Virus record (IMG/VR): IMGVR_UViG_3300025015_000010
Coordinates: 32,001 to 96,000 of that record
Length of the DNA stretch: 64,000 nt
Strand: one strand, 5' to 3'
From: a virus
Numbering within the stretch: the first letter of the stretch is position 1; every line of letters starts with the position of its first letter. Below are positions 47,104 through 64,000 of the stretch, one piece after another. The notes below the pieces were generated by a model. It ran no database searches, was not told where the DNA came from, and saw only the letters and a list, made by a program, of their open reading frames with translations. A program made the translations under genes and the position numbers.

Positions 47104-47608
47104 AGTCAAGTCCGTATACGAAGTATGTCCAGGTTTTGATGTCGAAATGGAAGACATGCTAGCTGATATAGTATCATTTCGTCGCCACAAGCCAGTAAAG
47201 ATTTTGCCTATACAAAAAGGCATAATTGCTGTGGTGATAAAAGATTTCTACCAGTATGGATTTGACTATTCAGTCTGGATTATGACCAAAGAAAATTATA
47301 GCAAGGTAAAAGGTTATTGCAAACTTAGCTATCTTCCTGCTATGGGAATAGTGCAGTTAGATCGTAATAATCGGCGCGTAGCAGACGAGCCCGCATTAGA
47401 CATAGTGAATTCTTACATGTTCCCATTTTATCGCGGACAGGGGATTATGAGAAACGCATACTTAGCTATTATACACTATTTTGGCAGTGTACGAAGCTAT
47501 GCGACACTGTCTAAAGATGCGTGGAATTTGTGGCAGTCATTGATGGATGAGCGGAGCATTAGCGTAGAAGACGATGGCCATCGCTGGCGAGCAGTGAGTC
47601 TAAAATGA
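47093..47608 (+). CDS. GNAT-like acetyltransferase
   Basis: YRGQGIM...Y...LS.DA..LW..L. Confidence 0.7.
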   Translation: MPPKVKSVYEVCPGFDVEMEDMLADIVSFRRHKPVKILPIQKGIIAVVIKDFYQYGFDYSVWIMTKENYSKVKGYCKLSYLPAMGIVQLDRNNRRVADEPALDIVNSYMFPFYRGQGIMRNAYLAIIHYFGSVRSYATLSKDAWNLWQSLMDERSISVEDDGHRWRAVSLK

Positions 47609-48247: not shown

Positions 48248-48652
48248 ATGGACACACGAGAACAGAATAATATTATCAAGCAGATGCGCGGCGAGCAGTG
48301 GAGACAGCAGGACGTTGGTGTATTTGATGAAGATGTAAGAACATTGATTTGGTATGGTCCAGGCGGTGTTGAAGGTGATTGTGCGTCTGAGTTGGAAGAC
48401 GAGGGTGGCTTTTGGCAGTTTAGTAGCTATCAACGTGTTGATGGTTATTTTGACGAGTACGATAAAGATTTTCCGTTCCTTAAAACCACTGTAAGTTTTG
48501 ATACTGTAAGTTTAAAAGATGCTTTAAAATTATTATGTATAAGTACAAAATTAGACAGACTTGGTCTGGCTCTATATGCGGCTGACTATGGCCAGGCAGC
48601 ACTGGCCTATTATGGCAGCAGAGAAGAGATGGTAGAGGATCTACCAAGATAA
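48248..48652 (+). CDS. hypothetical protein
   Basis: ORF track. Confidence 0.65.
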   Translation: MDTREQNNIIKQMRGEQWRQQDVGVFDEDVRTLIWYGPGGVEGDCASELEDEGGFWQFSSYQRVDGYFDEYDKDFPFLKTTVSFDTVSLKDALKLLCISTKLDRLGLALYAADYGQAALAYYGSREEMVEDLPR

Positions 48653-49164
48653 TGTCACACAGAGAATATGCTGCTAAGAAGAGGGCCAGGTTGGCAGGTG
48701 CAATTAAGCCTATATATGTAGATGAGGGCACACGATCAACTGTGTTCGAATCTAAAGGTTTTGCATATAAAGTCTACAACAAGTATAGCTATTACATGGC
48801 TTGCGCCGAGTTTTTGTGCCTGGGGCAACTCTGGGATCAGTTCCCAGAAGTCAGAAAGCACATACCTCGCATAGAGTTTCTGGATCGTGATAACGTTGTA
48901 CTAGTAAAAGAATTCATTAACGGGACTGTACTTAACGGTATGGATTATAGAATCGACGACGATCCTGGCCAACAAGCTAGGGAGCAAATTAAAGACGCAG
49001 CCAGTCAGCTAGGTTGGTTGGTAATTGATATGGAATATTATAGGAATGTTGTATTTGATGGCGAAAATTGGGTCATTATCGATATGTCACCGATTCCAGA
49101 CAGCGATAGTACACGGCAGCAGTTGAGCGAGTGTACCGCGCAGTTAGCTTTGCCAGAGGATTAG
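48652..49164 (+). CDS. minimal protein-kinase-like protein
   Basis: DEGTRSTVF, AYKV, KEFING, DMEYYRNV and IIDM. Confidence 0.75.
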   Translation: MSHREYAAKKRARLAGAIKPIYVDEGTRSTVFESKGFAYKVYNKYSYYMACAEFLCLGQLWDQFPEVRKHIPRIEFLDRDNVVLVKEFINGTVLNGMDYRIDDDPGQQAREQIKDAASQLGWLVIDMEYYRNVVFDGENWVIIDMSPIPDSDSTRQQLSECTAQLALPED

Positions 49165-49165: not shown

Positions 49166-49903
49166 ATGTCAAAACCATCTTATGCTCTAATCAACATAGC
49201 CCAGAAGTATTGGGAAATGATCGAGGCCTACAGCGATCTACCTTCAGGTCAGTTGCCTACTCGGGAAAACAGCCTGGGATGTGGGTCGTGGGGCTGTGCG
49301 TGGATGTCAGGCGATCCAAGATATGTGATCAAAATCAGCCGTGATCCAACAGAAGGCCCAACAGTAGCCGCGATACAGCATTTTGTAGGCAACCGTCAAG
49401 ATAGTTATCCAGGGTTGGCTATTATCAAGGCAGTTTGGCGGCTACCCGAGAAGATGGTCTACGGGGGTAAATCTCGGGATGTTTATGCTGTAGTGCGAGA
49501 AGCAGTCCAGCCTCTAGACTACCTTGGTTATCGTGGCAGGTCTAATTCAGATGATTATATCATACGTGAGACATCATTAGGCTTAACGCATTTGCGTGAT
49601 TATGTTAATGCAGGCATAGAATATAAGCAAGTGAAGAGAAATAAAGCCTGGTATTTTGATAAAATGAGAGATTCTGCTGTCGAGATGTACAATTACGAGC
49701 CTACCTATTACATAGCCGCAGCCTTAGAAGAACTACTCGATGCGGAAATTACATTGACTGATATACATCAAGGCAACATAGGATATCGTCTGATTGATTG
49801 GGATACAAATGGTAAGTTTGAACTTGCACCAAGCAATAGCCTACTGATCTTTGATTTTGGCCACTCAACTGTGCAGTTTGAAGTTCCTGTTTTGGGCGAG
49901 TGA
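49166..49903 (+). CDS. protein-kinase-like protein
   Basis: LGCGSWGCAW, VIKI, DIHQGNIG and FDFG. Confidence 0.8.
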   Translation: MSKPSYALINIAQKYWEMIEAYSDLPSGQLPTRENSLGCGSWGCAWMSGDPRYVIKISRDPTEGPTVAAIQHFVGNRQDSYPGLAIIKAVWRLPEKMVYGGKSRDVYAVVREAVQPLDYLGYRGRSNSDDYIIRETSLGLTHLRDYVNAGIEYKQVKRNKAWYFDKMRDSAVEMYNYEPTYYIAAALEELLDAEITLTDIHQGNIGYRLIDWDTNGKFELAPSNSLLIFDFGHSTVQFEVPVLGE

Positions 49904-50631
49904 TGATTCTATATCACGGTACAACGCTTCAGAATCTACAGAGTATTTTAGAACACGGCTTGATAGCTGGTAAGGGAAATAGTCTGCACAGAACAAAGAC
50001 ACGCAGTATGTTGTTTCTTGCAGGCGATATTCAAGGTGCGTTTGTATATGCGTCACCGGATTGTTATGATTCTAGTCGTGCAGATAAGACGCCTGTAGTG
50101 CTCGAAATCATATTGTCAGATGCATCTAAATTAGAACCCGACTATGACGATATAGACATAGGCAGTGTTTTGGATTATTTAAGAGAATTGGCCGAAAGTT
50201 TGGATATAGACCCATTGGAAATCTCACTAGATACGCCACTAGATGATACTTTGTATGAGCGAGTCAGCAGCAGAATATACAGAGACAAGATGGATTACGG
50301 GTATACGGGCATACGAGTTGATACAAATGACAATTTGAGAACTTTGTATGTTGATCCACTTGTATTTTTGTATATTGCATTAGAAGATATAGACCCAGAA
50401 ATTTTGGACGACGGTACTATAGACTGGGAAGATTCAGGCCTACCTGGGCTGTGGACACGTCAGTACAGGTATAACGGTAAAATTCCGACCTCAGACATTA
50501 GAGCAGTATGGTCGCCAGAAGGCGTAGCACCTAGTAATGGGAGATTAATGTCGATCAAGAATTATGCATGCTGGTCCGATGATAGAACAGAGCCACAAAA
50601 GGTTAACATGATAAGAAATTTGGTGTGGTGA
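49900..50631 (+). CDS. ART-like protein (Tpt1/KptA-like)
   Basis: LYHGT...SILEHGL, LFLA, A..YA, VVLEI and QYRYNGKIP..DI. Confidence 0.7.
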   Translation: MMILYHGTTLQNLQSILEHGLIAGKGNSLHRTKTRSMLFLAGDIQGAFVYASPDCYDSSRADKTPVVLEIILSDASKLEPDYDDIDIGSVLDYLRELAESLDIDPLEISLDTPLDDTLYERVSSRIYRDKMDYGYTGIRVDTNDNLRTLYVDPLVFLYIALEDIDPEILDDGTIDWEDSGLPGLWTRQYRYNGKIPTSDIRAVWSPEGVAPSNGRLMSIKNYACWSDDRTEPQKVNMIRNLVW

Positions 50632-51395
50632 TGTTCGCTATCCATAGAGTTAACTATGATAACGTGTTGTCAGCCAGCGAGGTAGATGGTGTTGTTCGTG
50701 CTATCGAGCATACAGGATATATCTTGCCCCAGGCCGAGTTAGTTCGTCGAGGACTATCTGGTAATATGTGTTTTGGGTTAGACTACCTGGCAGGTGATTG
50801 CGAGTATGTGTTTTTAAAACCTGTTGCCGAGGATTGGCAAGGTTGGTTGAGACAGTTCAAGATCACGGACGCTTTTGTTTTTGATTTAGATGTGCTGTTT
50901 GAGCAGGGCGCGTTGTACGGATTAAAAGATTTACTGGAAGATTATAAGCGGCTAGCTTATGAAACACTACTAGACAGAATTGGTGTTAGATTCAGCGCGG
51001 CTTATGTGTCTATATTTTTTGATTTACTGTTAGTGGAAATAGACGATGTGCCTATGTCTAGCAGTGCTAAAAGATCCTATAGTCAGATGTCCTACGGTAG
51101 TAAAATGCTACTTGAAGAAGTAGTTGGCGATGTACTTAAGCAGGAATTAGGTAATAAAATACTGGACGGAGTAAGGTCTAGATGCACTGATGCACAAAAT
51201 GCGTCTAGACACGCGTCAAGAACTATTATGAGCAAAGATTTAATCTCGTTAAACAGGTTATTACAAGTAGCAATCAACGAAGATCGGAAATCACCGCACG
51301 TGCTCGCTTCAGAACTATGCTATGAACATGTATTAGGCAGAGAGGTTCTATTTCCAGGCCCGCTGCCAGTCAGCCTTGCAATAAGTTGTCCATGA
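50631..51395 (+). CDS. DarT-like ART family, paralog 1
   Basis: AIH, GYILP, DYLAGD.EYVFL, AFVFD and EVLFPGPLP. Confidence 0.6.
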   Translation: MFAIHRVNYDNVLSASEVDGVVRAIEHTGYILPQAELVRRGLSGNMCFGLDYLAGDCEYVFLKPVAEDWQGWLRQFKITDAFVFDLDVLFEQGALYGLKDLLEDYKRLAYETLLDRIGVRFSAAYVSIFFDLLLVEIDDVPMSSSAKRSYSQMSYGSKMLLEEVVGDVLKQELGNKILDGVRSRCTDAQNASRHASRTIMSKDLISLNRLLQVAINEDRKSPHVLASELCYEHVLGREVLFPGPLPVSLAISCP

Positions 51396-51427
51396 TGGTA
51401 GACTTAATATAGGTAAACAGCCCCTGG

Positions 51428-52600
51428 CTAAAGCCAGAGGCTTTGTGCCAACCGCAGCACACTCGGGTGGTTTACATCGCCCGTTGCAATATCGGCAGAC
51501 ATTGCAAGCCGTTCGTGATTCAACGCAGCGTTGACATCACTGTGCATTCGGCTAGCACACAGGAAACATTCAAAAAGGTGTTTAAGACGATGACCACGAC
51601 TGGAGCACTTAGAACACGTTTTGCTCGTGTACGCGGGGTTGACATAGATTATATACAACCCCGCTGCAAGAGCTTTGTACTCAATAAAAGTCTGAAGTTG
51701 TTTCCAGGCCCATCGATGGAGCCTCGTGCGCTCTCGTTTTCTAGCTTTGATCCTGTCTCGGATATGAGTCAAGTCTTCCATTGCGATGGCATTACAGCCA
51801 TGGGCAAGGGCCTCTTCGACAAGTTGCTTACTGACGACGTGATTCACATGGGTCATGTAACGACTTTCTCTGCCAGAGATCATGCTCAAGCGCTTTTTAG
51901 CGCCCTTACTACCGTTGGCTTGAAGACGTCTACGAAGACTCAAATAGCAATCACGGTCGTGTCTTACTTTGCCCCCTTGGAAAAGTTTACCAGAACTAGT
52001 TGCTGCCATGACATTTTCACCAAGGTCAATACCAAGAACCTTAAGTGTTTTAACTGGAACAATTTCTTTGTTCTCAAGTTCAAGGGCGAGATTAAAATAC
52101 CAAGTATTATTTCTACAGACAAGTTCGGCCTCTTTAGGCGTACCCGAGGCAAGATAGTCACTCTGAAACCTGGCTACGACCATAGGCACTTTAATGCGCC
52201 CAAGAATCGTGTACATCGAAAGCTCGGAACCTTTTATCGAGTACGTCCGTTTGTCATAATGTACGCTGCCGGTGGGTCTGAAGTTAATCGCAGGGATCGG
52301 TTTGTTCTTGGCAAACGGTTTTTTAGACACAAGATCGCTATAGCTTCCACAAACATTCTTTAGAGCATTGCATACCATTTGAGACCCTAGTTTTGATCGT
52401 TTACGTAAGTCATCATAGCTGAAATTATGGAGCCTAAAGTGATTCCAACAACGATTTTTAATTACAACAGGCACAATACTTTGACATGTCGATATAAACT
52501 CGGTCCTAGTGTCCAAGAGAGCCTGGGCCTGTCCACTTGTTGTGTCAAGTTTGATTGACACAGTTCTGAGTATTTTGTTCTTATTTTCGGTTTTTGACAT
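51428..52600 (-). CDS. tnpB: TnpB RNA-guided nuclease, intact D-E-D
   Basis: GIDLG, AMEDL, Zn finger and SDVNAA. Confidence 0.95.
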   Translation of the reverse strand: MSKTENKNKILRTVSIKLDTTSGQAQALLDTRTEFISTCQSIVPVVIKNRCWNHFRLHNFSYDDLRKRSKLGSQMVCNALKNVCGSYSDLVSKKPFAKNKPIPAINFRPTGSVHYDKRTYSIKGSELSMYTILGRIKVPMVVARFQSDYLASGTPKEAELVCRNNTWYFNLALELENKEIVPVKTLKVLGIDLGENVMAATSSGKLFQGGKVRHDRDCYLSLRRRLQANGSKGAKKRLSMISGRESRYMTHVNHVVSKQLVEEALAHGCNAIAMEDLTHIRDRIKARKRERTRLHRWAWKQLQTFIEYKALAAGLYIIYVNPAYTSKTCSKCSSRGHRLKHLFECFLCASRMHSDVNAALNHERLAMSADIATGDVNHPSVLRLAQSLWL

Positions 52601-52991
52601 GCTCAAGCCTGTTAATATAGTTCTGGATTGTTTCTGCGCTAACACTGCCAGCAGTACCGACATAGTAAGATGGAGACCATAAGTGACCGCCCCACAGTTT
52701 GTTCTTGATCATCGGATGTTTCAGAAACAAGGATCTGGCTGTACGTCCTTTAAGGATTTGAATTGCACTGGCCACAGAAATCGCAGGAGGAATCGAAACG
52801 AACAAGTGAACATGATCCGGTTGAATTTCGATAGCAATAATTGGCCAGGCACACTCGTTGCAAATATTTCTGAGCAACGCTTCGAGACTGGTTGCTACAT
52901 CTTTGGTGAGAACTTGTTTTCTGTACTTAGGACACCATACAATGTGATATGCTGTTTGATAAGTGCAGTTGCGATTGCTTACGACATTCAT
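52581..52991 (-). CDS. tnpA: IS200 Y1 transposase
   Basis: YHIVWCPKYR, PDHVH, LWSPSYY and YI. Confidence 0.95.
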   Translation of the reverse strand: MNVVSNRNCTYQTAYHIVWCPKYRKQVLTKDVATSLEALLRNICNECAWPIIAIEIQPDHVHLFVSIPPAISVASAIQILKGRTARSLFLKHPMIKNKLWGGHLWSPSYYVGTAGSVSAETIQNYINRLEHVKNRK

Positions 52992-53092
52992 TACCTTAAT
53001 TCTACACTATGTTTTGAATATTTTCAAGGTGATACCGTGTTGCTCGCCTTCCTCCCCTGGCTAAAGCCAGAGGTTTCCGGCGAGGTTTCGCT

Positions 53093-53488
53093 ATGAAAAT
53101 TATTACACATGCTTGGGACGATATTGACGACAGAGATAATCTTTTGAGTATAGTTAGTCAGGTTAGGGCAGATGCAGAACGTGAGTGGGTCACAAAAGAG
53201 TGCGATTCGGAAGGAAGTTGTATTATTTGTTCGGCTATGCTGGCCGATAAATTACGCGAGGCCGGGTTTACAGCCAGAGATGTTCACGGCGCCTATATGG
53301 CACCAAACAGGCTGTGGTTTAATGATAATAATGTGAGTAGGCATAATTTTCATGGCGCTCACCACTGGTTTGTAATAGTGGATGATTTCTACATCGTCGA
53401 TATAACGGCCGATCAGTTTCACAGAGGCGAAGATGGCTATGAGATTGTCATTTCGGACGTAAACGATTTTAAGCACTACGATTTTTAA
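53093..53488 (+). CDS. transglutaminase/papain-like Cys-His-Asp protein
   Basis: GSCIICS...HHWF...VDITADQF. Confidence 0.55.
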   Translation: MKIITHAWDDIDDRDNLLSIVSQVRADAEREWVTKECDSEGSCIICSAMLADKLREAGFTARDVHGAYMAPNRLWFNDNNVSRHNFHGAHHWFVIVDDFYIVDITADQFHRGEDGYEIVISDVNDFKHYDF

Positions 53489-53501
53489 TCTAGGAGAAAA
53501 A

Positions 53502-53894
53502 ATGTCAAACGGTTGGATCACTGAAGAAGATCATGCACTGCTATTAACAGTGTGTACAAGCTTGGCTAAGACATTCCATGGAAATATAGGCGAAGAGACC
53601 GAATTTAGATTCCGCCAACCCAATATTACTCGTTACATGCAGATAGATGAAGGGATCACACTGGGTGTTTCGTTGGCTGCCGACTCTCCAACTGAAGGTG
53701 ATATCGTTATCAAGTTTTGGATTACGCAGCGCGGAATCGACTACACTAAGTTTGGCCCGTCAGAGTTCGATCAGGCGCTAGAAGGTTGGTCGAGTTTACT
53801 GTACGCCCCAGACGTAAAGTCTGTGCCAGAAATGCGAAAAGACATTAAGGACTTTTTGAAGGAACTTCGCAGAGTGCGCAGAAGTTGGAAGTGA
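53502..53894 (+). CDS. hypothetical protein
   Basis: AGGAG RBS. Confidence 0.7.
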   Translation: MSNGWITEEDHALLLTVCTSLAKTFHGNIGEETEFRFRQPNITRYMQIDEGITLGVSLAADSPTEGDIVIKFWITQRGIDYTKFGPSEFDQALEGWSSLLYAPDVKSVPEMRKDIKDFLKELRRVRRSWK

Positions 53895-53895
53895 A

Positions 53896-54351
53896 ATGAC
53901 CAAGTATTGGGGTCGTATGGGAGCTGGGGTGTTGTTTATGCACAAAAATAAAGTGCTTCTAACCCTGCGTAGCGACGAAGTCGAGCAGCCAGGTACGTGG
54001 GGAGTCCCAGGGGGAGCAGTGTCGCTAGATAGTTATGATGAGGTTTATACGCAGTCCAGCAGCGCAGGTAATATACAATTATCTGAAGACGCCATTTTTG
54101 ACTCTGCAATGCGTGAGTCGGCAGAGGAACTTGGAGCATTGCCAGACGACTACGAAGTGATGGATCATGTAGTTTACGCCGATCAGAAATTTCAGTATCA
54201 TACATTTTTCGTCGCAGTAGACATTAAGTGGCCGGTAACCCTGAATTGGGAAAATACCGATTATGGCTGGTTCAGTAAGAAGAAGTTACCTAGCCCACTG
54301 CATTTTGGAGTAGAGTACTTGATTGATCAGCGCCCAGAGTTTTTTCGATGA
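53896..54351 (+). CDS. NUDIX hydrolase
   Basis: GTWGVPGG...AMRESAEELG, LNWEN and PLHFG. Confidence 0.88.
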   Translation: MTKYWGRMGAGVLFMHKNKVLLTLRSDEVEQPGTWGVPGGAVSLDSYDEVYTQSSSAGNIQLSEDAIFDSAMRESAEELGALPDDYEVMDHVVYADQKFQYHTFFVAVDIKWPVTLNWENTDYGWFSKKKLPSPLHFGVEYLIDQRPEFFR

Positions 54352-54872
54352 TGACGCTAGAACAATTTGGAAGTTTTGAGCATGTATTCACGGACAGTTT
54401 TAGGCAAGCCGTGGAAGATATTGATGCCGCGCCTAGGCAAGACAGATATCCTTATGTATACACAGAGTTTATATCAGAAATTCGAGAGGCATTAAACCCC
54501 ATTTTCCATGTTGTTATTCCGGACGCTGTTTTAGATATATGGGTTCTTCTTTTCACCTCAGATGATAAGATAGGCGGTTGGGTAGAGTATACAGGTGGCG
54601 AACTAACATTGGCGCAGAATACGCATAGACCGAGAGCTAGATTTGTTGAGGTATTTTTCCACGAGGTTCAGCATTTGATTGATCTGTATCACGGCTACCC
54701 ATACATAGACTTAGCTGGATTTAGCCCAGAAACTGTAAGTGACGAGAGTTTGTATGTAAGTTCATCAAAAAAGTACAGAATGCAGTTAACTGAGCGCAGA
54801 GCTAGGCGAGCAGAGACAGGAATTGTACGCAAAGTATACAAGTACTATGTAAGGAACAGTTTTCCATCATGA
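54348..54872 (+). CDS. HExxH Zn-peptidase-like protein (tandem paralog A)
   Basis: FFHEVQHLID...ERRAR. Confidence 0.65.
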   Translation: MMTLEQFGSFEHVFTDSFRQAVEDIDAAPRQDRYPYVYTEFISEIREALNPIFHVVIPDAVLDIWVLLFTSDDKIGGWVEYTGGELTLAQNTHRPRARFVEVFFHEVQHLIDLYHGYPYIDLAGFSPETVSDESLYVSSSKKYRMQLTERRARRAETGIVRKVYKYYVRNSFPS

Positions 54873-55372
54873 TGACGCTAGAGCGGTTCAGTTATTTTAC
54901 TAATGTATTTACGCCAGAATTTCAGACTGCTGTTCATAAAGGTGCATTCAACGGGTCTAAGTACAGTTATTACTATACTGCTGTGGCCGAGCCCGTGATG
55001 ACAGTGCGAGAAGCTTTAACCGGCTGGTTTCATGCAGTAATACCGGACGAAGTTTTAGATATTATGGTTTGGTTTGAGCCAGACAGGTATGATGGCAACG
55101 GAAATATAAGATATCATAATGGTGAGTTAGTTATGGGATATAAACCCAGCATGCGTCCTTTCGATCTTGTCAGAGTGTTCTTTCACGAGATTAAGCACTT
55201 GATCGATGTGTATAATGGTTATCCCTATGTGGATCTTGGCGGGTATAGAGAAAGTTTTGGTAAAGAGACACAAGAGGAAGAATGGGACTTGCTATGGGAG
55301 CGTCGAGCTAGGTATGCAGAAACAGCTTTGATCAAACAAGCATATAGACTATGCCAGAAAGGTCTGAGATGA
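54869..55372 (+). CDS. HExxH Zn-peptidase-like protein (tandem paralog B)
   Basis: FFHEIKHLID...ERRAR. Confidence 0.65.
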   Translation: MMTLERFSYFTNVFTPEFQTAVHKGAFNGSKYSYYYTAVAEPVMTVREALTGWFHAVIPDEVLDIMVWFEPDRYDGNGNIRYHNGELVMGYKPSMRPFDLVRVFFHEIKHLIDVYNGYPYVDLGGYRESFGKETQEEEWDLLWERRARYAETALIKQAYRLCQKGLR

Positions 55373-55727
55373 AAATAAATCCAACACCGACAATCTACAA
55401 ACCGACGGACAAGCCCAAGGAAGACTTAAAAGAAAAGCCGTGCAAGAAACCATCGAGTTTCTTCAAGGCTTTGCAAAAAGAAATCAAGAAAGGCAGGAAG
55501 TAATGGACGCTAGAAAAGACGTTCAAAATGCGCGCGACGCCGTTCAGTATGCTGCATCTGTATGGACTCGGCTGGCTTTAAGTGCCTAGTCATGAAGACG
55601 GAGGTGTGGCAGAAAATATATCTGATCTACTTACAGAGGCTTTGAGGTTAGTTCGATTGGCGTCGTCTAGGGCTAATGGTCTTGCTAAAGTTAATTACGA
55701 TCCAGATTTACTGTTTCCGGATTAAAT

Positions 55728-56111
55728 ATGGACGTTCCTGCATATCTATACCACGGTACTTTTAGGAGCCTTGTGCCAAGTATTTTGGAGCATGGCTTGT
55801 TAGCTGTGCCGAAAGATTGGCGTATATGGCCTAATTTTTCTAAAGAAGATTCTGTATATCTGGCCGATAATTACAGGTCAGCATTGGAATGGGCAAGAGA
55901 CGGACTTGGGCAAATCGAGTTAGCCCTAACGGATGGCACAGACTCTTTCGGCTATGGCACCGGATTGATGCTGAACGTCTTGAGGATAGAAACGAGAGGC
56001 TTGTATTTGTGGCTGCTGATAGAAGAAGCGCCAGTTAAATGGGGTGAGTACGGTAGAGAATACAGATATCGCGGCGATATTCCTCCAGAATTAATCACCG
56101 TACTGGATTAA
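55728..56111 (+). CDS. ART-like protein (Tpt1/KptA-like), paralog of 58253
   Basis: YLYHGT...SILEHGL, VYLA, VLRI and EYRYRGDIPPELI. Confidence 0.72.
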   Translation: MDVPAYLYHGTFRSLVPSILEHGLLAVPKDWRIWPNFSKEDSVYLADNYRSALEWARDGLGQIELALTDGTDSFGYGTGLMLNVLRIETRGLYLWLLIEEAPVKWGEYGREYRYRGDIPPELITVLD

Positions 56112-56115
56112 ACAA

Positions 56116-56478
56116 ATGGAAGATCCTAATAGCAGCCTAGCAGACTTGATAAAAGAACAGTATCGCAAAGGTGTGATTATTGTTAGTAAGTTGGCTATAG
56201 GCACTAAACTCGAAGTTAAAACAACGAATGCAGTCTACCAAATCGAAGTAGTCGATCCGAAGAAACAGAAGCTGCGAATCCAAGGGGGATCGCAGTTCGC
56301 TAAGGTTACAGATGCTGAGCTAACTGGCTCGACATGGGGCGGGTCAGCTTTATGGGCTGATCGGATCGGCCGAGATATGTATATGGAATTATTCGCCAGA
56401 GGGATAGCACTCGCAACGCTGCAAGTCGAGAGTGTTGTAATCAAGGGCGATAAATGGGAATACGCAATGGAGTGGTGA
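56116..56478 (+). CDS. hypothetical protein
   Basis: ORF track. Confidence 0.7.
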   Translation: MEDPNSSLADLIKEQYRKGVIIVSKLAIGTKLEVKTTNAVYQIEVVDPKKQKLRIQGGSQFAKVTDAELTGSTWGGSALWADRIGRDMYMELFARGIALATLQVESVVIKGDKWEYAMEW

Positions 56479-56500
56479 TTATTGTGGACAAAATAAATAT

Positions 56501-57673
56501 ATGATATTAGGACACAAAATCAGGCTGGACCCTACATGCAGGCAAGTTAAGTTATTTAACCGAGCTTGCGGCGTTGCACGTTTCACATATAACTGGGCAT
56601 TGGCCGAGTGGAATAAACAGTACGATGCCGGTCAGAAGCCAAGCATATCTAATCTTATAAAACAATGGAATAAGATTAAGGGCGCGGAGTTTCCTTGGGT
56701 TTATGATTCACCTAAAGGCGCTAATCAGAGACCATTCACTTGTCTGAGGGCTGCGTTCTCCGGGTTCTTTAAGAAGCAGACAAAATACCCAAAGTTCAAG
56801 AAGAAATTTGTTCACGACTCATTTTATGTCGAAAATGATAAGTTCCATTTTATTGGCGATGCCCACGTACGTTTGCCTAAAATCGGCACGGTAAAAACTT
56901 GTGAGAAGTTACGTTTTACGGGTAAGATTATGGGCGCAGTAGTGTCTAGAATCGCAGATCGCTGGTTTATTGCAGTCCAAGTCGATGTTGGCGACTACCA
57001 TAAACCCAGAACCGGCAATGGCATAGCAGGTACAGATTTGGGGCTTATCACAGCAGCTACGATTGCTGTTAGTGATACGAAAACGATCAAGATAAAATCG
57101 CCGAAGCCGCTAAAGAAAGCATTATCAAAGCTTAGACGAATTAACCGGAAATTTTCAAGACAACAGAAAGGATCAAAACGCCGAGAAAAGACCCGGCGCA
57201 GACTGGCTAGACTGCATTTTCGAGTCAGTAACATTCGTAGAGATTTTACACAGAAGCTTACAACTCGACTCTGCCGCGAGAACCAAGTGGTAGTTATTGA
57301 GGATTTGAACGTGAAAGGCATGCTTAGCAACCATTGTCTTGCGCGTTCTTTGAATGACATTGGATTCTCTGAAATCAGACGCGAGCTTGGCTACAAGAAT
57401 CCAATCTATGATATGCAACTCGTTGTTGCAGATCGCTGGTTTCCGTCTTCAAGACAGTGTAGAATGTGTCTACATGTCAACAAAAATCTTGCACTCAGGG
57501 ATCGTATCTTTGTGTGTCCGAAGTGTAATCATACAGAAGACAGAGACGATCAGGCAGCATATAATTTACGTACCCTCGGCTTGAGGGAAATTCACGCTCA
57601 GGGAGAGGCCATGGCTTCGAGCACCCTCGACGAACTGAGAACTAACCCGTACTCACAAATGAGTACAATTTAG
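56501..57673 (+). CDS. tnpB: stand-alone TnpB (IS1341/IS607-derived); no tnpA; element ends not resolved
   Basis: N-terminal HTH, GTDLG, VIEDL, FPSS..C and DRDDQAA. Confidence 0.93.
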   Translation: MILGHKIRLDPTCRQVKLFNRACGVARFTYNWALAEWNKQYDAGQKPSISNLIKQWNKIKGAEFPWVYDSPKGANQRPFTCLRAAFSGFFKKQTKYPKFKKKFVHDSFYVENDKFHFIGDAHVRLPKIGTVKTCEKLRFTGKIMGAVVSRIADRWFIAVQVDVGDYHKPRTGNGIAGTDLGLITAATIAVSDTKTIKIKSPKPLKKALSKLRRINRKFSRQQKGSKRREKTRRRLARLHFRVSNIRRDFTQKLTTRLCRENQVVVIEDLNVKGMLSNHCLARSLNDIGFSEIRRELGYKNPIYDMQLVVADRWFPSSRQCRMCLHVNKNLALRDRIFVCPKCNHTEDRDDQAAYNLRTLGLREIHAQGEAMASSTLDELRTNPYSQMSTI

Positions 57674-57699
57674 AGAGCAGTATAGGATGGAATGGTGAT

Positions 57700-58266
57700 A
57701 TGCATCTCATAAACACTGTCCCTGTTGAAGGTCATCCAGAGCTAAAGCTAGCTTTGTGGGTAAGAATGTTTTATGGCGAAGTTGCGTACAAGGATTTTCC
57801 AGGTACTATCGAAGTAGGTTCCGCAAGATTTGCACTGTTGCCTAAACGAATAGATAGACGGGCTATTGAGCGGTCAAATGGCTCTCAAATGATATCGGAG
57901 GTGGGTCATATTGGCATCGGTTTGTTCAGGCCAGTATATTCGAGTTATCGAAAAATGCTAGACAGTTTTGATTACGAGCACGAACTTTTTGCGATGGTGA
58001 AATATGCAGAAATTACCGACCCAGAAGCACGCAAACACGGTTTGGGCTCTGCCATGTACATTACGGCTGTACGAGAACTTGGTGTGTTATTAGCCGATAC
58101 GACCTGGAGTGAAGGTGCCGAAAAGCTGTGGGAAAAATTACACACTAGGCACAAGTGTGTGTCGGTCGAGACTTGGGACCAGATATTTTTGACGCCTATA
58201 GCCATATGGAATTGTAGTAAATCAAGGCAGAATAAGTTTTGGAGGCAGGTCGATGAAATTGCCTGA
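57700..58266 (+). CDS. GNAT-like acetyltransferase
   Basis: ARKHGLGSAMY...SEGAEKLWEKL. Confidence 0.7.
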   Translation: MHLINTVPVEGHPELKLALWVRMFYGEVAYKDFPGTIEVGSARFALLPKRIDRRAIERSNGSQMISEVGHIGIGLFRPVYSSYRKMLDSFDYEHELFAMVKYAEITDPEARKHGLGSAMYITAVRELGVLLADTTWSEGAEKLWEKLHTRHKCVSVETWDQIFLTPIAIWNCSKSRQNKFWRQVDEIA

Positions 58267-58609
58267 ATATCTCTATCACGGTACGTACAGTACACTGGTC
58301 GAACATATTATGGCTAACGGTTTGATCCGTGTGCCCAGGGATTGGCGAATCTGGCCGAGTCATGCCGAGATCGAGTGTGTCTATTTGACTAGTGATCCAC
58401 ACAATGCGCTGCACTGGGCGCTCCAGGGACTCGATAAACTTGATTATATGGATAACTATCGCAGTAAATACAATATTCTGCCAGTAGCGCTTCAAATTAA
58501 TAAGGCAGGCATAAACATGGATTTGTTATTAGAAGATACCAACATGAGTAACAAACAAGATTTTTGCTACGCGGGTGACATTGAGCCGATGTGGATCGAG
58601 GTAGTTTGA
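58253..58609 (+). CDS. ART-like protein (Tpt1/KptA-like)
   Basis: YLYHGT...IMANGL, VYLTSD and DFCYAGDIEP..I. Confidence 0.72.
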   Translation: MKLPEYLYHGTYSTLVEHIMANGLIRVPRDWRIWPSHAEIECVYLTSDPHNALHWALQGLDKLDYMDNYRSKYNILPVALQINKAGINMDLLLEDTNMSNKQDFCYAGDIEPMWIEVV

Positions 58610-59316
58610 TGGGCAGAATAATTGCAATTCATGACGTGGCATATAATAAACAGAGTGTGTCTAATAAGCTGATTCGTCAGATACTAGATTATGGCTCGTT
58701 ATTGCCAGCATCGATGCGGGATCGTTGGAAGCAGATTGGCGCGTTCGATTATTTAGCCGGTGACGCTGATTACGTATTTTTGTCTTTGTATGACGGGCTC
58801 GATGACTCCGAGTACGGTATTGGATTTAATAAGTCGGCATTTTGGTTTGATGCCGAGCACTTGATCAAGCTAGGCGCAATAGTTAGAGACTATGATCTGT
58901 TAGATGATTACTTCATTGTAGCCGAAGACGCCGCGCTTGAAATTATCAATTTCGACGTCACAGGTAATCGATATAAAAACATTGAAGACCACGTAGATGT
59001 CTTAGACCTGATACAATGCGCCGTGATGCACAACATAAATAGTAGGCTTGATCCTAAGGCTTTGGTTGATTATTCCGGTAAACAAGCATATCCATGGTAT
59101 AAGAAACTCGCCAAAGATGGCTTGATATCTCCAATGCTAGATGCCGTTCACTGTGCGCTAGTAGAATATAAAAAGCAGTATAATCACGTAGGTAAAGATG
59201 CAATTAGAGAGCTACATAATGCAATGGACCATGCCACAGGCACAGAAATCTTATGGCACGGTCCACTTCCGCTGTTATATGCTCTTCCAGAATCCCCTGC
59301 TTTTCGGGTGAAGTGA
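58609..59316 (+). CDS. DarT-like ART family, paralog 2
   Basis: AIH, GSLLP, DYLAGDADYVFL, AFWFD and EILWHGPLP. Confidence 0.6.
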   Translation: MGRIIAIHDVAYNKQSVSNKLIRQILDYGSLLPASMRDRWKQIGAFDYLAGDADYVFLSLYDGLDDSEYGIGFNKSAFWFDAEHLIKLGAIVRDYDLLDDYFIVAEDAALEIINFDVTGNRYKNIEDHVDVLDLIQCAVMHNINSRLDPKALVDYSGKQAYPWYKKLAKDGLISPMLDAVHCALVEYKKQYNHVGKDAIRELHNAMDHATGTEILWHGPLPLLYALPESPAFRVK

Positions 59317-59927
59317 TGTATGCAGTCCACAGCATAACTTACCATAGAAACTCAGATCCAGACGAGATCATTCATCAGATTCTTGCCACGGGTAAACTAT
59401 TGCCGCTCGCAGATCGTCTGCCAGTAGACGAGACAGGTATGCAGCCCGTTGATGTGTTTGCCGGGGATCATTATTTTGTTTTCCTTCGAGTTCGAGATTC
59501 TTGGCCTAACCAGTCTTCGGCATTTGTATTCGATGCCGAAGATTTGATAGCGCGTGGAGCAGCCTTTAGAAAAAGCGATCTGTTGCTGAGTTATTGGGCA
59601 GAAGCAAAGTCAGTAATAGACGAATTTAGATTGATAGATGCTTTTAATGCTACCGAGTGCGGTATATTACAAGACTTGATGCACTACGTCGATGATAAGT
59701 TTGAAGAACCATATATGCGTTATTATGGGGATTCCCAGGCCCGTACTGTGGTAAGGATATTGCAAGCTAGGCTGGGTCAGATTGCCGAAGAAGGTACATA
59801 CTACGGTAAAGAGGCCCTGAGATTGCTGTCCGACCCAAATTCTAGGTCAGGATATAGCGAGTTAGTCTGGCGAGGTCCGCTGCCAATTAGTTTAGCACTT
59901 CCAGAATCACCTGTGTTTCAAAGGTAA
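59316..59927 (+). CDS. DarT-like ART family, paralog 3
   Basis: AVH, GKLLP, DVFAGDHYFVFL, AFVFD and ELVWRGPLP. Confidence 0.6.
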   Translation: MYAVHSITYHRNSDPDEIIHQILATGKLLPLADRLPVDETGMQPVDVFAGDHYFVFLRVRDSWPNQSSAFVFDAEDLIARGAAFRKSDLLLSYWAEAKSVIDEFRLIDAFNATECGILQDLMHYVDDKFEEPYMRYYGDSQARTVVRILQARLGQIAEEGTYYGKEALRLLSDPNSRSGYSELVWRGPLPISLALPESPVFQR

Positions 59928-59930
59928 ACT

Positions 59931-60452
59931 ATGAGCATAACATTCTATGCATCAGAAGCAAAATATCATTATCAGCGCATACTTTGTACTTCACCAGAAA
60001 TGGGCCTGACATGTACCCCGTCAAGTCGTTGTGGATATTGTGAGGATGGTTGGACGGAAGAACCTGTGTACGAAATTGAGCCACTGAATTTGTCCAATAG
60101 AAATGCCAAGCAAATTATGACTATTTTGGGTCTACCAAGCACAGACGAAGGATCTATAGATAATTCAGATTTAGATCATCTGAAAAGGCGGATCGACTAC
60201 TTGACGTCCGATAAACGGTCTCTGGTTCATCAAGGCGGCTATGATGAGTTGATGCGTTACGCTTTCGATACTGTAGACTATCGAGATATAGATTTAGAAG
60301 AAGATATGTTTGGACAAGTAGTAGCGACCCCGATTGGTCCACGTGTTATTGATGTAGGCATGAGTTACGAATATCTTGTACGCAGGTTGTTAGAACTGCG
60401 CGATTTGTTTGATCAAGCTTGGCGATCTGGTTATTCGATAGGTTGGTACTAA
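59931..60452 (+). CDS. hypothetical protein
   Basis: ORF track. Confidence 0.7.
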   Translation: MSITFYASEAKYHYQRILCTSPEMGLTCTPSSRCGYCEDGWTEEPVYEIEPLNLSNRNAKQIMTILGLPSTDEGSIDNSDLDHLKRRIDYLTSDKRSLVHQGGYDELMRYAFDTVDYRDIDLEEDMFGQVVATPIGPRVIDVGMSYEYLVRRLLELRDLFDQAWRSGYSIGWY

Positions 60453-60453
60453 G

Positions 60454-61212
60454 GTGGCCAAAAAATCACATTTACGTAAGCACAGTCCGAAAGCCGCTTG
60501 GGACATACAATCCTGGCTGGCAAGTTATCTAAATACAGACGTGGATATCTATGATTTTTCGTGGACTATCCGTGAGTTCTTAGCAGATCAAGAAATTGAG
60601 TCCGATGCTGAGTATGTTGAAGATTTGACTGAGCAACAGCAGGTCGAATTCAAAGATTGGCTGTTGAGGGATAGTAAAATAGACAACATCTGTCAGGGTC
60701 AAGAAGTAGACTGTCCATCATATTTAATGTTCAGGGACGCTCGGGTACTCCCTAAAGGTACTTGGCTAGTACATTTTTCTAGCAAGTATTTTAGCCAGTT
60801 TAAGTACGGTTCAAACTATGAGCGGTTGCATCTGTCAACATGGTTCATTAAAAAGCATAAAGTTAAGTCTAACAATCTCAGTGATGAAATTGGTGCTGCT
60901 GAAGTAGTATTCGGTTTTGCTTTTGATACGGATCAGATGAATCGTATTATATGTCATGGTCACAGGTTTGGTAAGCACGTTAAGCTATTCCAATGTGATA
61001 TGGCAGTAGAAGCATACCATACTAGCGACGGCTATAGACAGGTTATTTTCCCTCTTGGCAGTGAGTATAACGTGATTGATCTATCCGAGGTATATAGTAA
61101 TGGCAACATTGATGTTGAGTTAAGTGGCGGCGACGTAATCAGGGTAGACAGTGTCTCAGAAGTTATTGATCTAGCAGCACATGGCAGAATCGAAGTGAGT
61201 AATTACACATGA
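60454..61212 (+). CDS. hypothetical protein with a possible ART-like C-terminal half
   Basis: WLVHFS...FAF...FG...QVIF. Confidence 0.45.
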   Translation: MAKKSHLRKHSPKAAWDIQSWLASYLNTDVDIYDFSWTIREFLADQEIESDAEYVEDLTEQQQVEFKDWLLRDSKIDNICQGQEVDCPSYLMFRDARVLPKGTWLVHFSSKYFSQFKYGSNYERLHLSTWFIKKHKVKSNNLSDEIGAAEVVFGFAFDTDQMNRIICHGHRFGKHVKLFQCDMAVEAYHTSDGYRQVIFPLGSEYNVIDLSEVYSNGNIDVELSGGDVIRVDSVSEVIDLAAHGRIEVSNYT

Positions 61213-62189
61213 GACCTATTTTTGCAATGCCTAAATATAGACCGTTCTCGGCCGTTATAACCAGCCACAGAGATGGCTGGCTATATGGTCATTCTGGTGA
61301 TGAGTATGATGTGTATAGACCTTTGCATATGACCTTAGACGGTTGGATGTACGCTACGCATTCATTTGGTCAAGTACTGACCAATGGTAAGTCTGTCTTT
61401 GGTGCAATCAGAAAGTCAGGTTATTTGTTGCCGGAAATAGACCGTAATTCAGCTACGCTCAAACGTAGTCCCACGGGGCAAGGCTCTATGTTTCCAATCG
61501 ATGCGATTGCTGGTGATGATAAGCTAGTATTTTTTCGCCCAGGATCACCACTCCCTGGCGCTGGTGCTTTCTTCTTCGCCGCCAGGTCGTTGATACTGGA
61601 TTTCGGAGGTAGAGTAGGCACGGATATATTAGGCGATTACAAGAGAATATTGGAAAAAGCGATGGCCGATTTTGGGTTACCATACAATAAATGGACTCAT
61701 GCACGAGAGAGCATAAAGCATAAAGAACTCGATTTGCTGGAACAGATGAAAGGTGAGCTAACTGGAGACGAAGCCTACAAAATGCGTGACGAGATTTTTA
61801 CAAAGTTTGATTCTGATCTTCGTTGGGCTATCCTAGATTTGCCACAAGAAATTGTTGAGGAATTCTATGTGCGCGTGCAAAGGTTTCGTGATACTGAACG
61901 ATCAGGTGGACTAGAAGCAGCAGATTTCGTGGACAGACTAGAGGCTCAGCAGGCTATTGGTTACCCAGGAGCGGCAATTAACTATTCAGAAAGATACGAG
62001 ATCACCGTCGAAGGTCGCGTGCCTATTGATAGCGCATTTGGGTGGATGTATAACACTACAAACGGAGTAGACTTTGGTTTTCGAGAGGAATTCTATCCGT
62101 ATTACGAGTATGTTGAATTGTTAGATAGAGCAGTCGCTAGCAGATTGAACCCAGATACGTATTTTCTTGAGGATGTGGTGAACATATGA
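61209..62189 (+). CDS. DarT-like ART family, paralog 4
   Basis: ATH, GYLLP, DAIAGDDKLVFF, AFFF and EITVEGRVP. Confidence 0.6.
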   Translation: MRPIFAMPKYRPFSAVITSHRDGWLYGHSGDEYDVYRPLHMTLDGWMYATHSFGQVLTNGKSVFGAIRKSGYLLPEIDRNSATLKRSPTGQGSMFPIDAIAGDDKLVFFRPGSPLPGAGAFFFAARSLILDFGGRVGTDILGDYKRILEKAMADFGLPYNKWTHARESIKHKELDLLEQMKGELTGDEAYKMRDEIFTKFDSDLRWAILDLPQEIVEEFYVRVQRFRDTERSGGLEAADFVDRLEAQQAIGYPGAAINYSERYEITVEGRVPIDSAFGWMYNTTNGVDFGFREEFYPYYEYVELLDRAVASRLNPDTYFLEDVVNI

Positions 62190-62965
62190 GATCAGTCTAT
62201 CATATTGTAGGCCTAAGCTACTGCCAGCCTGATCCCTCGGCAGCAGATAGTTATTATGATCAAGAAATCGAACAGCCAATTATAGAAACCTTTGAGGCCG
62301 TGTTAGCCAAAGGCGAATTACTGGCACCGAGTCAATTCGGTAGTATTGCGAGTCCGACACTGATCGATGCTATGGCAGGGGATAATCATTATGTTTTTCT
62401 CGGAGAGAGTCTAACTGGGCCTGCAAATTATGAGTGCCCAGAAGAATACTCCTACGGATTTGCATTTGATGCCTATCAGCTAATTGAGCTAGGCTGTGGC
62501 GTTCGATTTGGCGATTTGATTGTGGCTTATGAGCACGAAATTATGAATTTTGTAGGCGATGCGCCCTGGAGTCAGAATGATCTTGAGAAAGTTAACCAGT
62601 TTTTGGCCAATGGCAGCCTAGATCCGGTAGAAGAAATGATGGCTCTTAAAGGCCATGAGTATGAGATAGAAACGAAGAAAGCACGTAGGCGCGAAAAAGA
62701 GTTGATGGAGATAGTAGGTGTTCTCGAATCTCCACCTGATGAATTGCGTCATAGACTACAACAGATAGCTGATCAGAATACGATGTTCGGCAACGCGGCT
62801 ATTGAGGCACTAGAAAGTCATAGAGATATGGAGTTTGTGACGCCAGAGAAACTAAGTCTTACAGCTATGATTCACGTTATTATGGCAGGTAGAAAAGTTA
62901 GTTGGGACGAGTTGACAAGTCTGTATGATGTGAAAGTAATTAGACAGCGCGAGCTTTGGGAATAA
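62186..62965 (+). CDS. DarT-like ART family, paralog 5
   Basis: VYH, GELLAP, DAMAGDNHYVFL, FAFD and EFVTPEKLS. Confidence 0.6.
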   Translation: MRSVYHIVGLSYCQPDPSAADSYYDQEIEQPIIETFEAVLAKGELLAPSQFGSIASPTLIDAMAGDNHYVFLGESLTGPANYECPEEYSYGFAFDAYQLIELGCGVRFGDLIVAYEHEIMNFVGDAPWSQNDLEKVNQFLANGSLDPVEEMMALKGHEYEIETKKARRREKELMEIVGVLESPPDELRHRLQQIADQNTMFGNAAIEALESHRDMEFVTPEKLSLTAMIHVIMAGRKVSWDELTSLYDVKVIRQRELWE

Positions 62966-62968
62966 CAT

Positions 62969-62996
62969 TTGACTTTGCAATAAACTATGCTATAAT
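62969..62996 (+). promoter_or_regulatory. promoter, leaderless
   Basis: TTGACT-16-(TGC)TATAAT; ATG at 63003. Confidence 0.8.
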
Positions 62997-63002
62997 TTTG
63001 GC

Positions 63003-63557
63003 ATGCTTAAACCAGGTATAACTTATGCAGAAGAACTTCAGCACGCTTTAGCTCTTGCCGAGAACTGCAAATGGCTACTGGCTAAAAAGCTGAAGCAGGA
63101 ATATATGCCAGTAGTTAAGCCACAAATTGTTTGGAATACTAGACTTGGGACCACGGCTGGTAATTGCCGTACAAGAAACAAGCGCGACTATGCCAGAATG
63201 TCTCATGTAATCGAACTTAACCCTAAGCTTCTGATCGATGCCATAAAATTCAAAAGAACTCTAGTACACGAGTTAGCCCACGCAGTGACTATCGAATTGT
63301 GGCCCAGGTCTAAGCATCACGGGCGTGAGTGGAAAGCTGTAATGAGGTACATGCTAGCAGAGCCAGCAAGGTGTCATTGTTATGATACGAGTCATATCAA
63401 GCGCAGGCAGACTAGAGCCGAGATTCAATGCTCCTGCGGGAAGATATTCACACTCAGTAAGAACTGTTATACCAGGATGACCAACGGCACTACGGGCTAT
63501 AGACACAAGGAATGTAAGCGCAATCTGATCGATGCAAAATTTGTCAGGTACGTTTAG
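63003..63557 (+). CDS. SprT-like Zn metalloprotease
   Basis: TTAG, HELAH, HG.EWK..M and Zn ribbon. Confidence 0.9.
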   Translation: MLKPGITYAEELQHALALAENCKWLLAKKLKQEYMPVVKPQIVWNTRLGTTAGNCRTRNKRDYARMSHVIELNPKLLIDAIKFKRTLVHELAHAVTIELWPRSKHHGREWKAVMRYMLAEPARCHCYDTSHIKRRQTRAEIQCSCGKIFTLSKNCYTRMTNGTTGYRHKECKRNLIDAKFVRYV

Positions 63558-63607
63558 TTGTGAATAGTGGTAGACTTAAGATAGGCAGTGTTTAGAAAGG
63601 AAAAATC

Positions 63608-63856
63608 ATGGCAAAGCGAAGAAGTTCAAAGAAGTTATCTTATCGTGAGCAGCTAATAAAGAAAATCAAAGCCGCTTGGAAGAAATATGATCACGCTTAT
63701 ACCTCTGGTGATGCTAGAGAAGCTAAGTTAGAGGCAATCTACTGCACTGAAAACCTGGGCGGCGTAGCCTGTGCTTCCTGGAAAACATACAGAGACTCCT
63801 GGGCAGGTAAAGAGTGGATTAGGCGGGAAGAAATAAGGCAAAATACGAGAGCATAG
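63608..63856 (+). CDS. basic hypothetical protein
   Basis: RBS; TGGTAGACT -10 at 63571. Confidence 0.65.
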   Translation: MAKRRSSKKLSYREQLIKKIKAAWKKYDHAYTSGDAREAKLEAIYCTENLGGVACASWKTYRDSWAGKEWIRREEIRQNTRA

Positions 63857-63865
63857 AGCTACTTA

Positions 63866-64000
63866 ATGATTAACGGCATCAAATTTTTAGCATGGCATAG
63901 TGTTGGTAGTGACGATGTTAAAGCTACAATCAAGCAGATAGTCAAGCGAGGTTTCTTGCTGCCTGCTTCGATGCGCACAGGTAGAACTTGCAAGATTCAG
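63866..64000 (+). CDS. DarT-like ART family, paralog 6 (runs off the window end)
   Basis: MINGIKFLAWHSV...IKQIVKRGFLLPASMR matches the paralog 2 N-terminus (RQILDYGSLLPASMR). Confidence 0.6.
   Translation, partial: MINGIKFLAWHSVGSDDVKATIKQIVKRGFLLPASMRTGRTCKIQ

Follow-up and report, generated by a model that had tools for sequence, protein, structure and literature searches.

ADP-ribosylation is a main currency of the conflict between phages and their hosts, as in the Alt and Mod enzymes of phage T4, the DarTG toxin–antitoxin pair and the ADP-ribosyltransferases (ARTs) of polyvalent proteins. Alt, ModA and ModB of T4 are ARTs of the R-S-E type, and the catalytic glutamate of DarT is E160 in DarT2 and E152 in DarT1. 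DarT additionally has a conserved arginine (R51 in DarT2, R52 in DarT1) that is needed for proton abstraction from the base, and base specificity is set by its ARTT region, to which the DNA strand binds (PMC11543638). ARTs including DarT place the substrate-binding ARTT loop between strands 4 and 5, and an H-aromatic-E layout characterizes ARTD-class enzymes (PMC11543638). The lytic phage T4 deploys several antitoxin-free ART paralogs, Alt, ModA and ModB, to reprogramme host proteins, and polyvalent proteins carry ART domains in multiple copies, up to 12 per protein, with phages encoding at least 10 ARTs on record (PMC5512222, PMC9503650). Here, we analyze six paralogous genes, termed family 1, that are encoded in a 64,000-nucleotide stretch of DNA (the window) comprising bases 32001-96000 of the 168,734-bp IMG/VR virus record IMGVR_UViG_3300025015_000010, which is estimated to be 77% complete.

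The original prediction, made from the sequence alone, had described a six-member DarT-like family with a D..AGD signature, a variable helical insert, a terminal glutamate and no visible antitoxin, and had pictured it as modifying host or competitor DNA or protecting the phage genome. We propose, with a probability of about 60%, that family 1 is an uncatalogued family of the ART superfamily whose members are diversified phage effectors that modify different host targets and need no antitoxin.

Six paralogs combine a conserved core with a variable insert

All six genes are found on the + strand (Table 1) and constitute one paralogous family. With the protein encoded at 58609 (paralog B, whose residue numbers are used throughout) as query, the other five are retrieved from the record at E values from 9e-26 to 3e-3 (including 3e-18 and 6e-7). 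A hidden Markov model (HMM) built from five members detects the held-out sixth at E 1.6e-33, and the next open reading frame of the 169-kb record reaches only E 0.81. The named ATG starts sit on TGATG or ATGA overlaps and agree with the database proteins P0001, P0013 and P0015; specifically, the stop of paralog B and the start of paralog C overlap as TGATG, and paralogs D and E overlap as ATGA. Only the first 45 codons of paralog F fall inside the window, and the full-length protein retains H, D, AGD, VF, F.F, D, Y and E.

The six proteins share the motifs H, G.LLP, D..AGD..[YFL]VF, F.F(D), D.L..Y and a C-terminal E.[LIV], and the signature that had been read from the sequence is accurate for every one of them. 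Across the six paralogs and six homologues, H8, G29, L32, D47, A50-G51-D52, V56-F57, F78, F80, L85, D96, Y101 and E213 are invariant, and position 55 varies among the paralogs as Y, F or L. The paralogs are 33% identical in the N- and C-terminal cores and 14% in the insert that stretches from Y101 to E213, the length of which ranges from 88 to 132 residues. Paralog D carries about 45 extra residues at its N-terminus and about 60 at its C-terminus. In line with the predicted lack of an antitoxin, the Macro, NADAR and ADP-ribosylglycohydrolase (ARH) models (PF01661, PF08719 and PF03747) match nothing at E ≤ 10 in the available 169 kb of this 77% complete record.

The predicted fold of family 1 is ART-like

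An AlphaFold2 model of paralog B, built on a 12-sequence alignment, has a predicted local distance difference test score (pLDDT) of 84.4 and a predicted template-modelling score (pTM) of 0.81. Its strands are predicted at residues 5-9, 55-61, 77-81, 91-93, 213-217 and 220-221. In this model, H8 lies in strand 5-9 (strand 1), Y55 and F57 lie in strand 55-61 (strand 2), and strand 213-217 (strand 5) begins with E213. The model, therefore, shows the H-aromatic-E layout of ARTD-class enzymes. The ART superfamily is defined by a split β-sheet core in which strand 1 bears histidine or arginine, strand 2 an aromatic residue or S-T-S, and strand 5 glutamate, aspartate or glutamine, and the predicted model has this core together with the histidine, the aromatic residue and the glutamate. 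In the model, strands 4 and 5 are joined by the variable helical module, which occupies the position of the substrate-selecting ARTT loop.

Structural searches place the model nearest to DarT. In the Foldseek comparison that the original prediction had proposed, the three best rows in the PDB are Thermus DarT at E 0.14-0.22, with nothing at E ≤ 0.001. A search of 48,161 chains, independent of Foldseek, also ranks Thermus DarT first (Z 8.0, 118 residues aligned, root-mean-square deviation (rmsd) 3.5), along with M. tuberculosis DarT (Z 7.9), Thermosipho DarTG (6.6) and E. coli C7 DarT1 (6.3). When the Foldseek matches are realigned in a second look, 7omw comes out on top at Z 8.4, and the DarT chains that span model residues 1-235 are 7omw (8.4), 7omy (8.1), 7omv (8.0), 7yk3 (8.0), 7omu (6.6) and 8baq (6.3). 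All other core-spanning matches are likewise ART enzymes, namely OspC3/CopC (Z 5.3-5.9), Tpt1/KptA (4.3-5.2), SopF (5.0), cholera toxin A1 (4.4), pertussis S1 (4.3) and the Rhs toxin TreX (4.1). The residual rows are MarR-like and globin-like and confined to the helical residues 94-192, which the tool's own caution makes uninformative; we set aside the MarR-like matches to the insert (Z 5-7, residues 94-192), since a helical arrangement alone reaches such scores and the inserts are acidic. The BFVD database returned weak rows only, the best at E 0.013, to mimivirus and tupanvirus ORFans and three Bacillus phage G proteins. Because a Z of about 8 is not decisive alone, the weight is carried by the consistency of the ART matches and by the geometry.

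That OspC3/CopC follow DarT in the structural ranking bears on another explanation, in which an ART-like fold would serve other chemistry linked to nicotinamide adenine dinucleotide (NAD+), such as NAD+ hydrolysis, OspC-like ADP-riboxanation or phosphotransfer of the Tpt1 kind. A protein-language-model search also lists an OspC-family cluster at 0.92, which is a lead only, and the Asp-rich conserved set without arginine is unlike that of the classical H-Y-E and R-S-E transferases. We nevertheless consider this quite unlikely: the Shigella_OspC and Tpt1 models are not matched by family 1, the language-model score falls in a range also reached by chance, and a large set of diversified copies with variable substrate-side inserts would be superfluous for depleting NAD+.

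Family 1 differs from DarT in defining features

Judged on the defining features examined, family 1 is not of the DarT family, so that of the DarT-like claim the ART fold with DarT as its nearest solved structure (Z 8.0-8.4) stands and DarT membership falls. The DarT model PF14487 (DUF4433; cut-off 22.5 bits) yields no match at E ≤ 1 for five paralogs, none at E ≤ 10 across the 169-kb record and none among 50 wider members, and it finds DarT of enteropathogenic Escherichia coli (EPEC), the positive control, at 181 bits. In an hhalign comparison, family 1 (50 sequences) meets a DarT alignment (27 DarT2-type sequences) at E 0.3 and 0.2% probability; that alignment, built from EPEC DarT, spans only 65-84% identity, a low diversity that could hide remote homology. 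The only stretch aligned puts E213 on the glutamate of DarT's QAE motif, which is suggestive and non-significant. The catalytic glutamate itself has a clear equivalent, since E213 is invariant in the 12 sequences, is kept in 91% of 93 wider domains and opens strand 5. The DarT arginine, on the other hand, has no counterpart among these 93 family-1 domains, in which the loop before strand 2 reads D47..A50-G51-D52. Additionally, family 1 is acidic, with a median isoelectric point (pI) of 5.1, 91% of proteins below pI 7, acidic inserts, and a net charge of -10 versus -1 for the DarT set. This acidity argues mildly against a nucleic-acid substrate, and the DNA target of the original prediction, a pure inference, is to that extent disfavoured.

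A true DarT-type enzyme would ADP-ribosylate single-stranded DNA bases, either those of the host or a competitor, to toxic effect, or those of the phage itself, as protection. DarT is indeed the best structural neighbour in three independent searches, the glutamate motif that hhalign aligns resembles DarT's QAE..P, and the variable region of family 1 coincides with the ARTT region, which in DarT binds DNA. However, we regard such an enzyme as unlikely, because PF14487 is silent for all six paralogs, the 50 wider members and the whole record, the profiles meet at a non-significant E value, the required arginine has no basic counterpart, proteins and inserts are acidic, and Macro and NADAR are absent from the record. 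Moreover, six diverged and retained copies, together with arrays of at least 11, suit many targets better than a single DNA mark.

Neighbouring ART-like genes include a second family

Family 2 comprises three genes (starting at 49900, 55728 and 58253) that share LYHGT..SILEHGL. A model of its 127-aa member has a pLDDT of 73, and all 50 of its 50 best structural matches adopt the ART fold, the first being KptA 9ld3 (Z 9.8, rmsd 2.2, 25% identity); as modelled, family 2 is unambiguously of ART fold. Its Tpt1 scores of 15-19 bits lie far below the cut-offs of 26 (Pfam) and 231-239 (NCBIfam). An hhalign comparison connects family 2, through its 243-aa member, to family 1 at E 0.0018, and in the N-terminal half the H, G.L and AGD elements of the two families fall on one another. 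The stop of 49900..50631 overlaps the start of paralog A, and that of 58253..58609 overlaps the start of paralog B. Although two of the three family-2 genes thus abut family 1 here, an obligate two-gene unit was rejected, as four genes separate the 49900-type and 50631-type genes in the related contig L008.

A further ART-like gene lies just beyond the window (Table 1). It scores 28 bits against the PF18760 cut-off of 31.2, is the sole PF18760 match in the record, and stands directly after paralog F and before a glucosaminidase gene; no family-1 protein matches PF18760. A 278-aa protein encoded at 44593-45429 has an LLFHGT motif near its N-terminus, no Pfam match and no response from the family-2 HMM, and could be one more ART-like gene. 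The gene at 56116-56478 encodes a 120-aa protein that is 87-88% identical in L006 and L008, among the best conserved of the block, and always follows the 127-aa family-2 mini-ART.

Family 1 has metagenomic relatives, no model in the libraries searched and arrays in giant proteins

None of the Pfam, NCBIfam, PHROGs or PADLOC models matches any of the six family-1 proteins, and Pfam gives no relevant match for 50 wider relatives. Profile searches of all PDB sequences return only chance helical matches in the insert, and literature searches found no paper describing family 1. The family thus appears undescribed, although phage ART batteries as such are already known. In the search for its distribution, 273 relatives (clusters at 50% identity) were recovered at E ≤ 1e-3 when 1.84 billion representatives were searched exhaustively with a profile, and 154 of them reach E ≤ 1e-10; a word-index protein search returned just 11 and understates the size of the family. 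The relatives looked up come from metagenome assemblies only and are unnamed proteins, with one UniRef entry, from an Ammonifex degensii bin, labelled "uncharacterized". A pattern scan of IMG/VR with the 58609 protein found no relative.

Among 93 full-length domains, the conserved positions are D47 (96%), D52 (97%), F57 (90%), F78 (94%), F80 (95%), L85 (99%), D96 (99%), Y101 (95%), E213 (91%) and H8 (76%), and no arginine or lysine column is at least 70% conserved. This pattern also bears on the idea that family 1 keeps the ART fold without catalysis and serves as a decoy or sponge, capturing host proteins or immune signals made of NAD-derived or other nucleotides. In favour of this, sponges that soak up immune nucleotides are known from phages, the family-1 proteins are abundant and acidic, no arginine is conserved, and conservation of H8 is incomplete across the wider family. 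Against this, H8 and E213 are invariant in the six paralogs and their orthologues, with E213 kept family-wide, whereas pseudo-enzymes usually lose such residues, and fusion arrays in giant enzymatic polyvalent proteins suit effectors better. We rate it the least probable of the explanations weighed here.

Related phages carry the same families in differing copy numbers, with five family-1 genes in 15 kb of L006 and seven in 21 kb of L008. Every paralog is matched by an orthologue in related phage contigs, at 58-82% identity: 58-59% for paralog A in L006 and L008, 66% for paralog B in L006 (none in L008), 80-82% for paralog C and 71-77% for paralog D (P0004-P0008). Since neighbouring genes fall in the same range, selection maintains every copy. 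In L008, the 58609 type is missing, and additional copies follow the SprT gene. At L008:6099-6895, the 118-aa family-2 gene is cut to 61 codons, the paralog B orthologue is gone and the paralog C orthologue lies directly next, which looks like a single deletion.

Other members reside in phage-like contigs beside primase and helicase genes, and several are built into giant proteins. Specifically, P0014 (5358 aa) holds three tandem family-1 copies, P0028 holds three to four together with Trypsin_2, P0058 holds two (the two-copy protein is 6513 aa long), and P0078 joins a family-1 domain to Amidoligase_2 and RadC; a family-1 domain also shares a protein with a weak ART-PolyVal match. In L020:3242-17627, part of a 23.6-kb ENA metagenome contig with phage-like surroundings, at least 3+4+4 (at least 11) tandem copies extend over three adjacent giant genes. 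The last of these is cut by the contig end, and two of the three carry trypsin-like domains. Family 1 thus shows the habit by which domains of polyvalent phage proteins are recognized, namely occurrence in multiple copies in giant multidomain proteins with hallmark domains. In a quick unrooted tree with many open forks, copies from the same giant protein group with one another. The six paralogs are not monophyletic; each has a long branch and closer kin in other metagenomes, indicating that they are old and individually maintained. On the same grounds, we rejected a recent lineage-specific burst.

Family 1 is proposed to be a battery of host-directed effectors

Several observations weigh against placing family 1 in the ART superfamily. 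The structural scores are middling, a Z of about 8 being often reached, by the tool's own note, by models without true relatives, and the best Foldseek E value is 0.14 for a model built on a shallow alignment of 12 sequences. The library and PDB profile searches give family 1 no significant link to any known ART family, and the hhalign comparison with DarT is non-significant. The link to family 2 has only 15% probability at E 0.0018, and a richer family-2 alignment weakens it to E 0.095. The conserved polar set, D47, D52, D96, Y101 and E213 with no conserved arginine or lysine, is atypical of ARTs, and H8 is kept in 76% of the wider family, partly owing to cut N-termini. If these points were decisive, the ART likeness would be a coincidence of modelling and family 1 would have an unrelated fold and function. 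We consider this very unlikely, because the core-spanning matches are all ARTs and come from no fewer than seven separate ART families, the three canonical strands each carry one of the three invariant residues, and family 1 adjoins and weakly aligns with the clear ART family 2. A non-ART fold is not what the model predicts.

For the favoured reading, that of diversified ART effectors of large phages, we infer NAD+ use, catalysis, targets and biological role as follows. The core would be a split six-stranded ART sheet, with the histidine on strand 1 followed by a helix ending in G.LLP, an Asp-rich loop (D..AGD) leading into strand 2 with its aromatic residue ([YFL]VF), the F.F strand, the D.L..Y element and the invariant glutamate opening strand 5. 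The gap between strands 4 and 5 would hold a paralog-specific acidic helical module. Each enzyme would bind NAD+ and move ADP-ribose to a target of its own chosen by the insert, the constant core providing NAD+ chemistry and the variable module at the ARTT position providing target choice. If each insert selects its own target, the set would work as a battery of host-takeover or counter-defence effectors, in the manner of T4 Alt/ModA/ModB and the multi-copy ARTs of polyvalent proteins. Host proteins are more likely targets than nucleic acid. No antitoxin would be needed because the phage acts on a host that it will kill, and the likeness to multi-copy polyvalent ARTs and ART-rich phages makes a missing antitoxin unremarkable. 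A bolder form of this proposal, which we hold to be doubtful, is that family 1 forms an ART clade apart, whose chemistry or acceptor is peculiar to it (D..AGD and D.L..Y, no DarT arginine). It would be deployed in combinatorial arrays, whether of separate genes, as in this phage, or of domains fused in giant proteins, and each insert would recognize and disable a different host immune or core protein, together making a modular anti-defence battery.

As no library searched holds a model of the family, current annotation and surveys of defence and anti-defence are blind to it. Being acidic and without DarT's key arginine, family 1 may reveal a new acceptor or mode of substrate choice, and six paralogs plus fused arrays, with a constant core and swapped inserts, make a ready series for studying target choice by the ARTT region. 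Should the ART prediction fail, family 1 would be just another unknown phage accessory gene.

The family-1 genes lie in a dense accessory block

From about 44.6 kb to the window end, small co-directional genes are packed closely together, and in many cases a stop overlaps the next start; the ART cluster reads as a co-directional, translationally coupled accessory block. Within 15 kb it contains about 10 ART-like genes, counting family 1, family 2 and the ART-PolyVal-like gene (Table 1). Their companions are a NUDIX hydrolase, an SprT-like protease, two HExxH paralogs and weak kinase-, GNAT- and transglutaminase-like genes. In a scan for promoters and terminators, there was no enrichment over shuffles, a result that is silent on timing.

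Table 1. Genes of family 1, family 2 and associated enzymes. Coordinates are those of the window unless G000 is named.
Feature	Length (aa)	Coordinates	Strand	Basis and remarks
Family 1, paralog A (H..AGD..YVF..E)	254	50631..51395	+	HMM E 2.1e-84; all invariant residues kept
Family 1, paralog B (protein modelled)	235	58609..59316	+	DarT is best fold match
Family 1, paralog C	203	59316..59927	+	HMM E 9.2e-80; shortest insert (88 residues)
Family 1, paralog D	326	61209..62189	+	HMM E 2.9e-61 and alignment
Family 1, paralog E	259	62186..62965	+	HMM E 5.4e-81; most acidic (net charge -25, pI 4.5)
Family 1, paralog F (locus L001)	237	63866..64000, on to G000 96579	+	Held-out HMM match
Family 2, ART-like	243	49900..50631	+	Weak PARP (E 0.0013) and Tpt1 matches; also LAGD..FVY
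Family 2, minimal ART (KptA/Tpt1-like catalytic domain alone)	127	55728..56111	+	Structural model
Family 2, minimal ART	118	58253..58609	+	Family-2 alignments; weak Tpt1 match
NUDIX hydrolase	151	53896..54351	+	PF00293 E 3.8e-9, above family cut-off
ART-PolyVal-like gene (starts MRLLGYHGT)	193	G000 96650-97231 (L012:650-1231), 650 bases past window		PF18760 E 4.3e-6

The NUDIX gene is 79-81% identical in related phages. It encodes the only recognizable enzyme of the cluster that could act on NAD or ADP-ribose, and it may take part in ADP-ribose handling. Two overlapping paralogous genes at 54348-54872 and 54869-55372 (174 and 167 aa) both have FFHE[VI].HLID (HExxH) but no Pfam match; polyvalent proteins commonly include zincin-like peptidases, and these two may be of that kind. 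Three small paralogs with kinase-like motifs, one of them with a weak RIO1 match (E 0.011), are encoded at 46552-47103, 48652-49164 and 49166-49903, and a weak GNAT-like protein (E 0.012) is encoded beside them at 47093-47608, just upstream of the ART cluster.

Mobile elements are also present in the block. An IS200/IS605 element (TnpA Y1 transposase and TnpB) occupies 51428-52991 on the - strand, between paralog A and the next phage gene, and a second, solo TnpB gene at 56501-57673 on the + strand separates family-2 from family-1 genes. In the related phages L008 and L009, TnpB genes occur elsewhere in the same block.

The record as a whole encodes a family A DNA polymerase, helicases, ribonucleotide reductase, Ro60 and a DNA methylase. 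The Ro60/TROVE protein with its vWA domain is encoded at 9664-11313 (PF05731 E 7.5e-36, PF25045 E 3.1e-63). The DNA polymerase is less than 30% identical to anything in 50,697 GenBank phage records, and neither the region nor the 58609 protein has a match in the same records by megablast and tblastn.

Comparison with known ART systems

DarT is the nearest solved structure, with 116-125 residues aligned at rmsd 3.4-3.7 (7OMV-7OMY from Thermus, 7YK3 from M. tuberculosis and 8BAQ, E. coli C7 DarT1). Both families have a histidine on strand 1, an aromatic-rich strand 2 (DYVF in family 1, DYVPF in DarT), a glutamate opening strand 5 that is followed by a proline-containing turn, and an enlarged element at the ARTT position. 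They differ in that family 1 has the D..AGD loop in place of DarT's NAD-binding loop, has no counterpart of the essential arginine, carries a helical insert of 88-132 residues and is acidic. Furthermore, family 1 is phage-encoded in six copies plus arrays with no DarG or NADAR, whereas DarT is the toxin of a toxin–antitoxin pair. The OspC3/CopC ADP-riboxanases resemble family 1 in the helical elaborations around an ART-like core, but they score lower than DarT, and family 1 lacks a Shigella_OspC match and the ankyrin and calmodulin-binding parts. Tpt1/KptA is the closest likeness of family 2, in structure and in the HGT..SIL..GL motif, except that family 2 is without Tpt1's N-terminal RNA-binding domain.

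In deployment, the closest parallels are found in phages. The T4 ARTs are alike in being several ART paralogs in one phage without antitoxins; they show no sequence match or top structural match to family 1. Polyvalent proteins (PMC5512222) bring together the same mix of enzymes as this block, which here occurs as separate genes. ART-PolyVal/Tox-ART-HYD2 (PF18760; Iyer et al. 2017, PMC5512222) is a separate sequence family, with H-Y-D where family 1 has H-aromatic-E and without the large, helical ARTT insert of family 1. Yet it is deployed in the same way, both solo and in tandem in giant phage proteins, it is accompanied by peptidase, RadC and amidoligase domains as family 1 is, and it has the same predicted role, the modification of host macromolecules early in infection.

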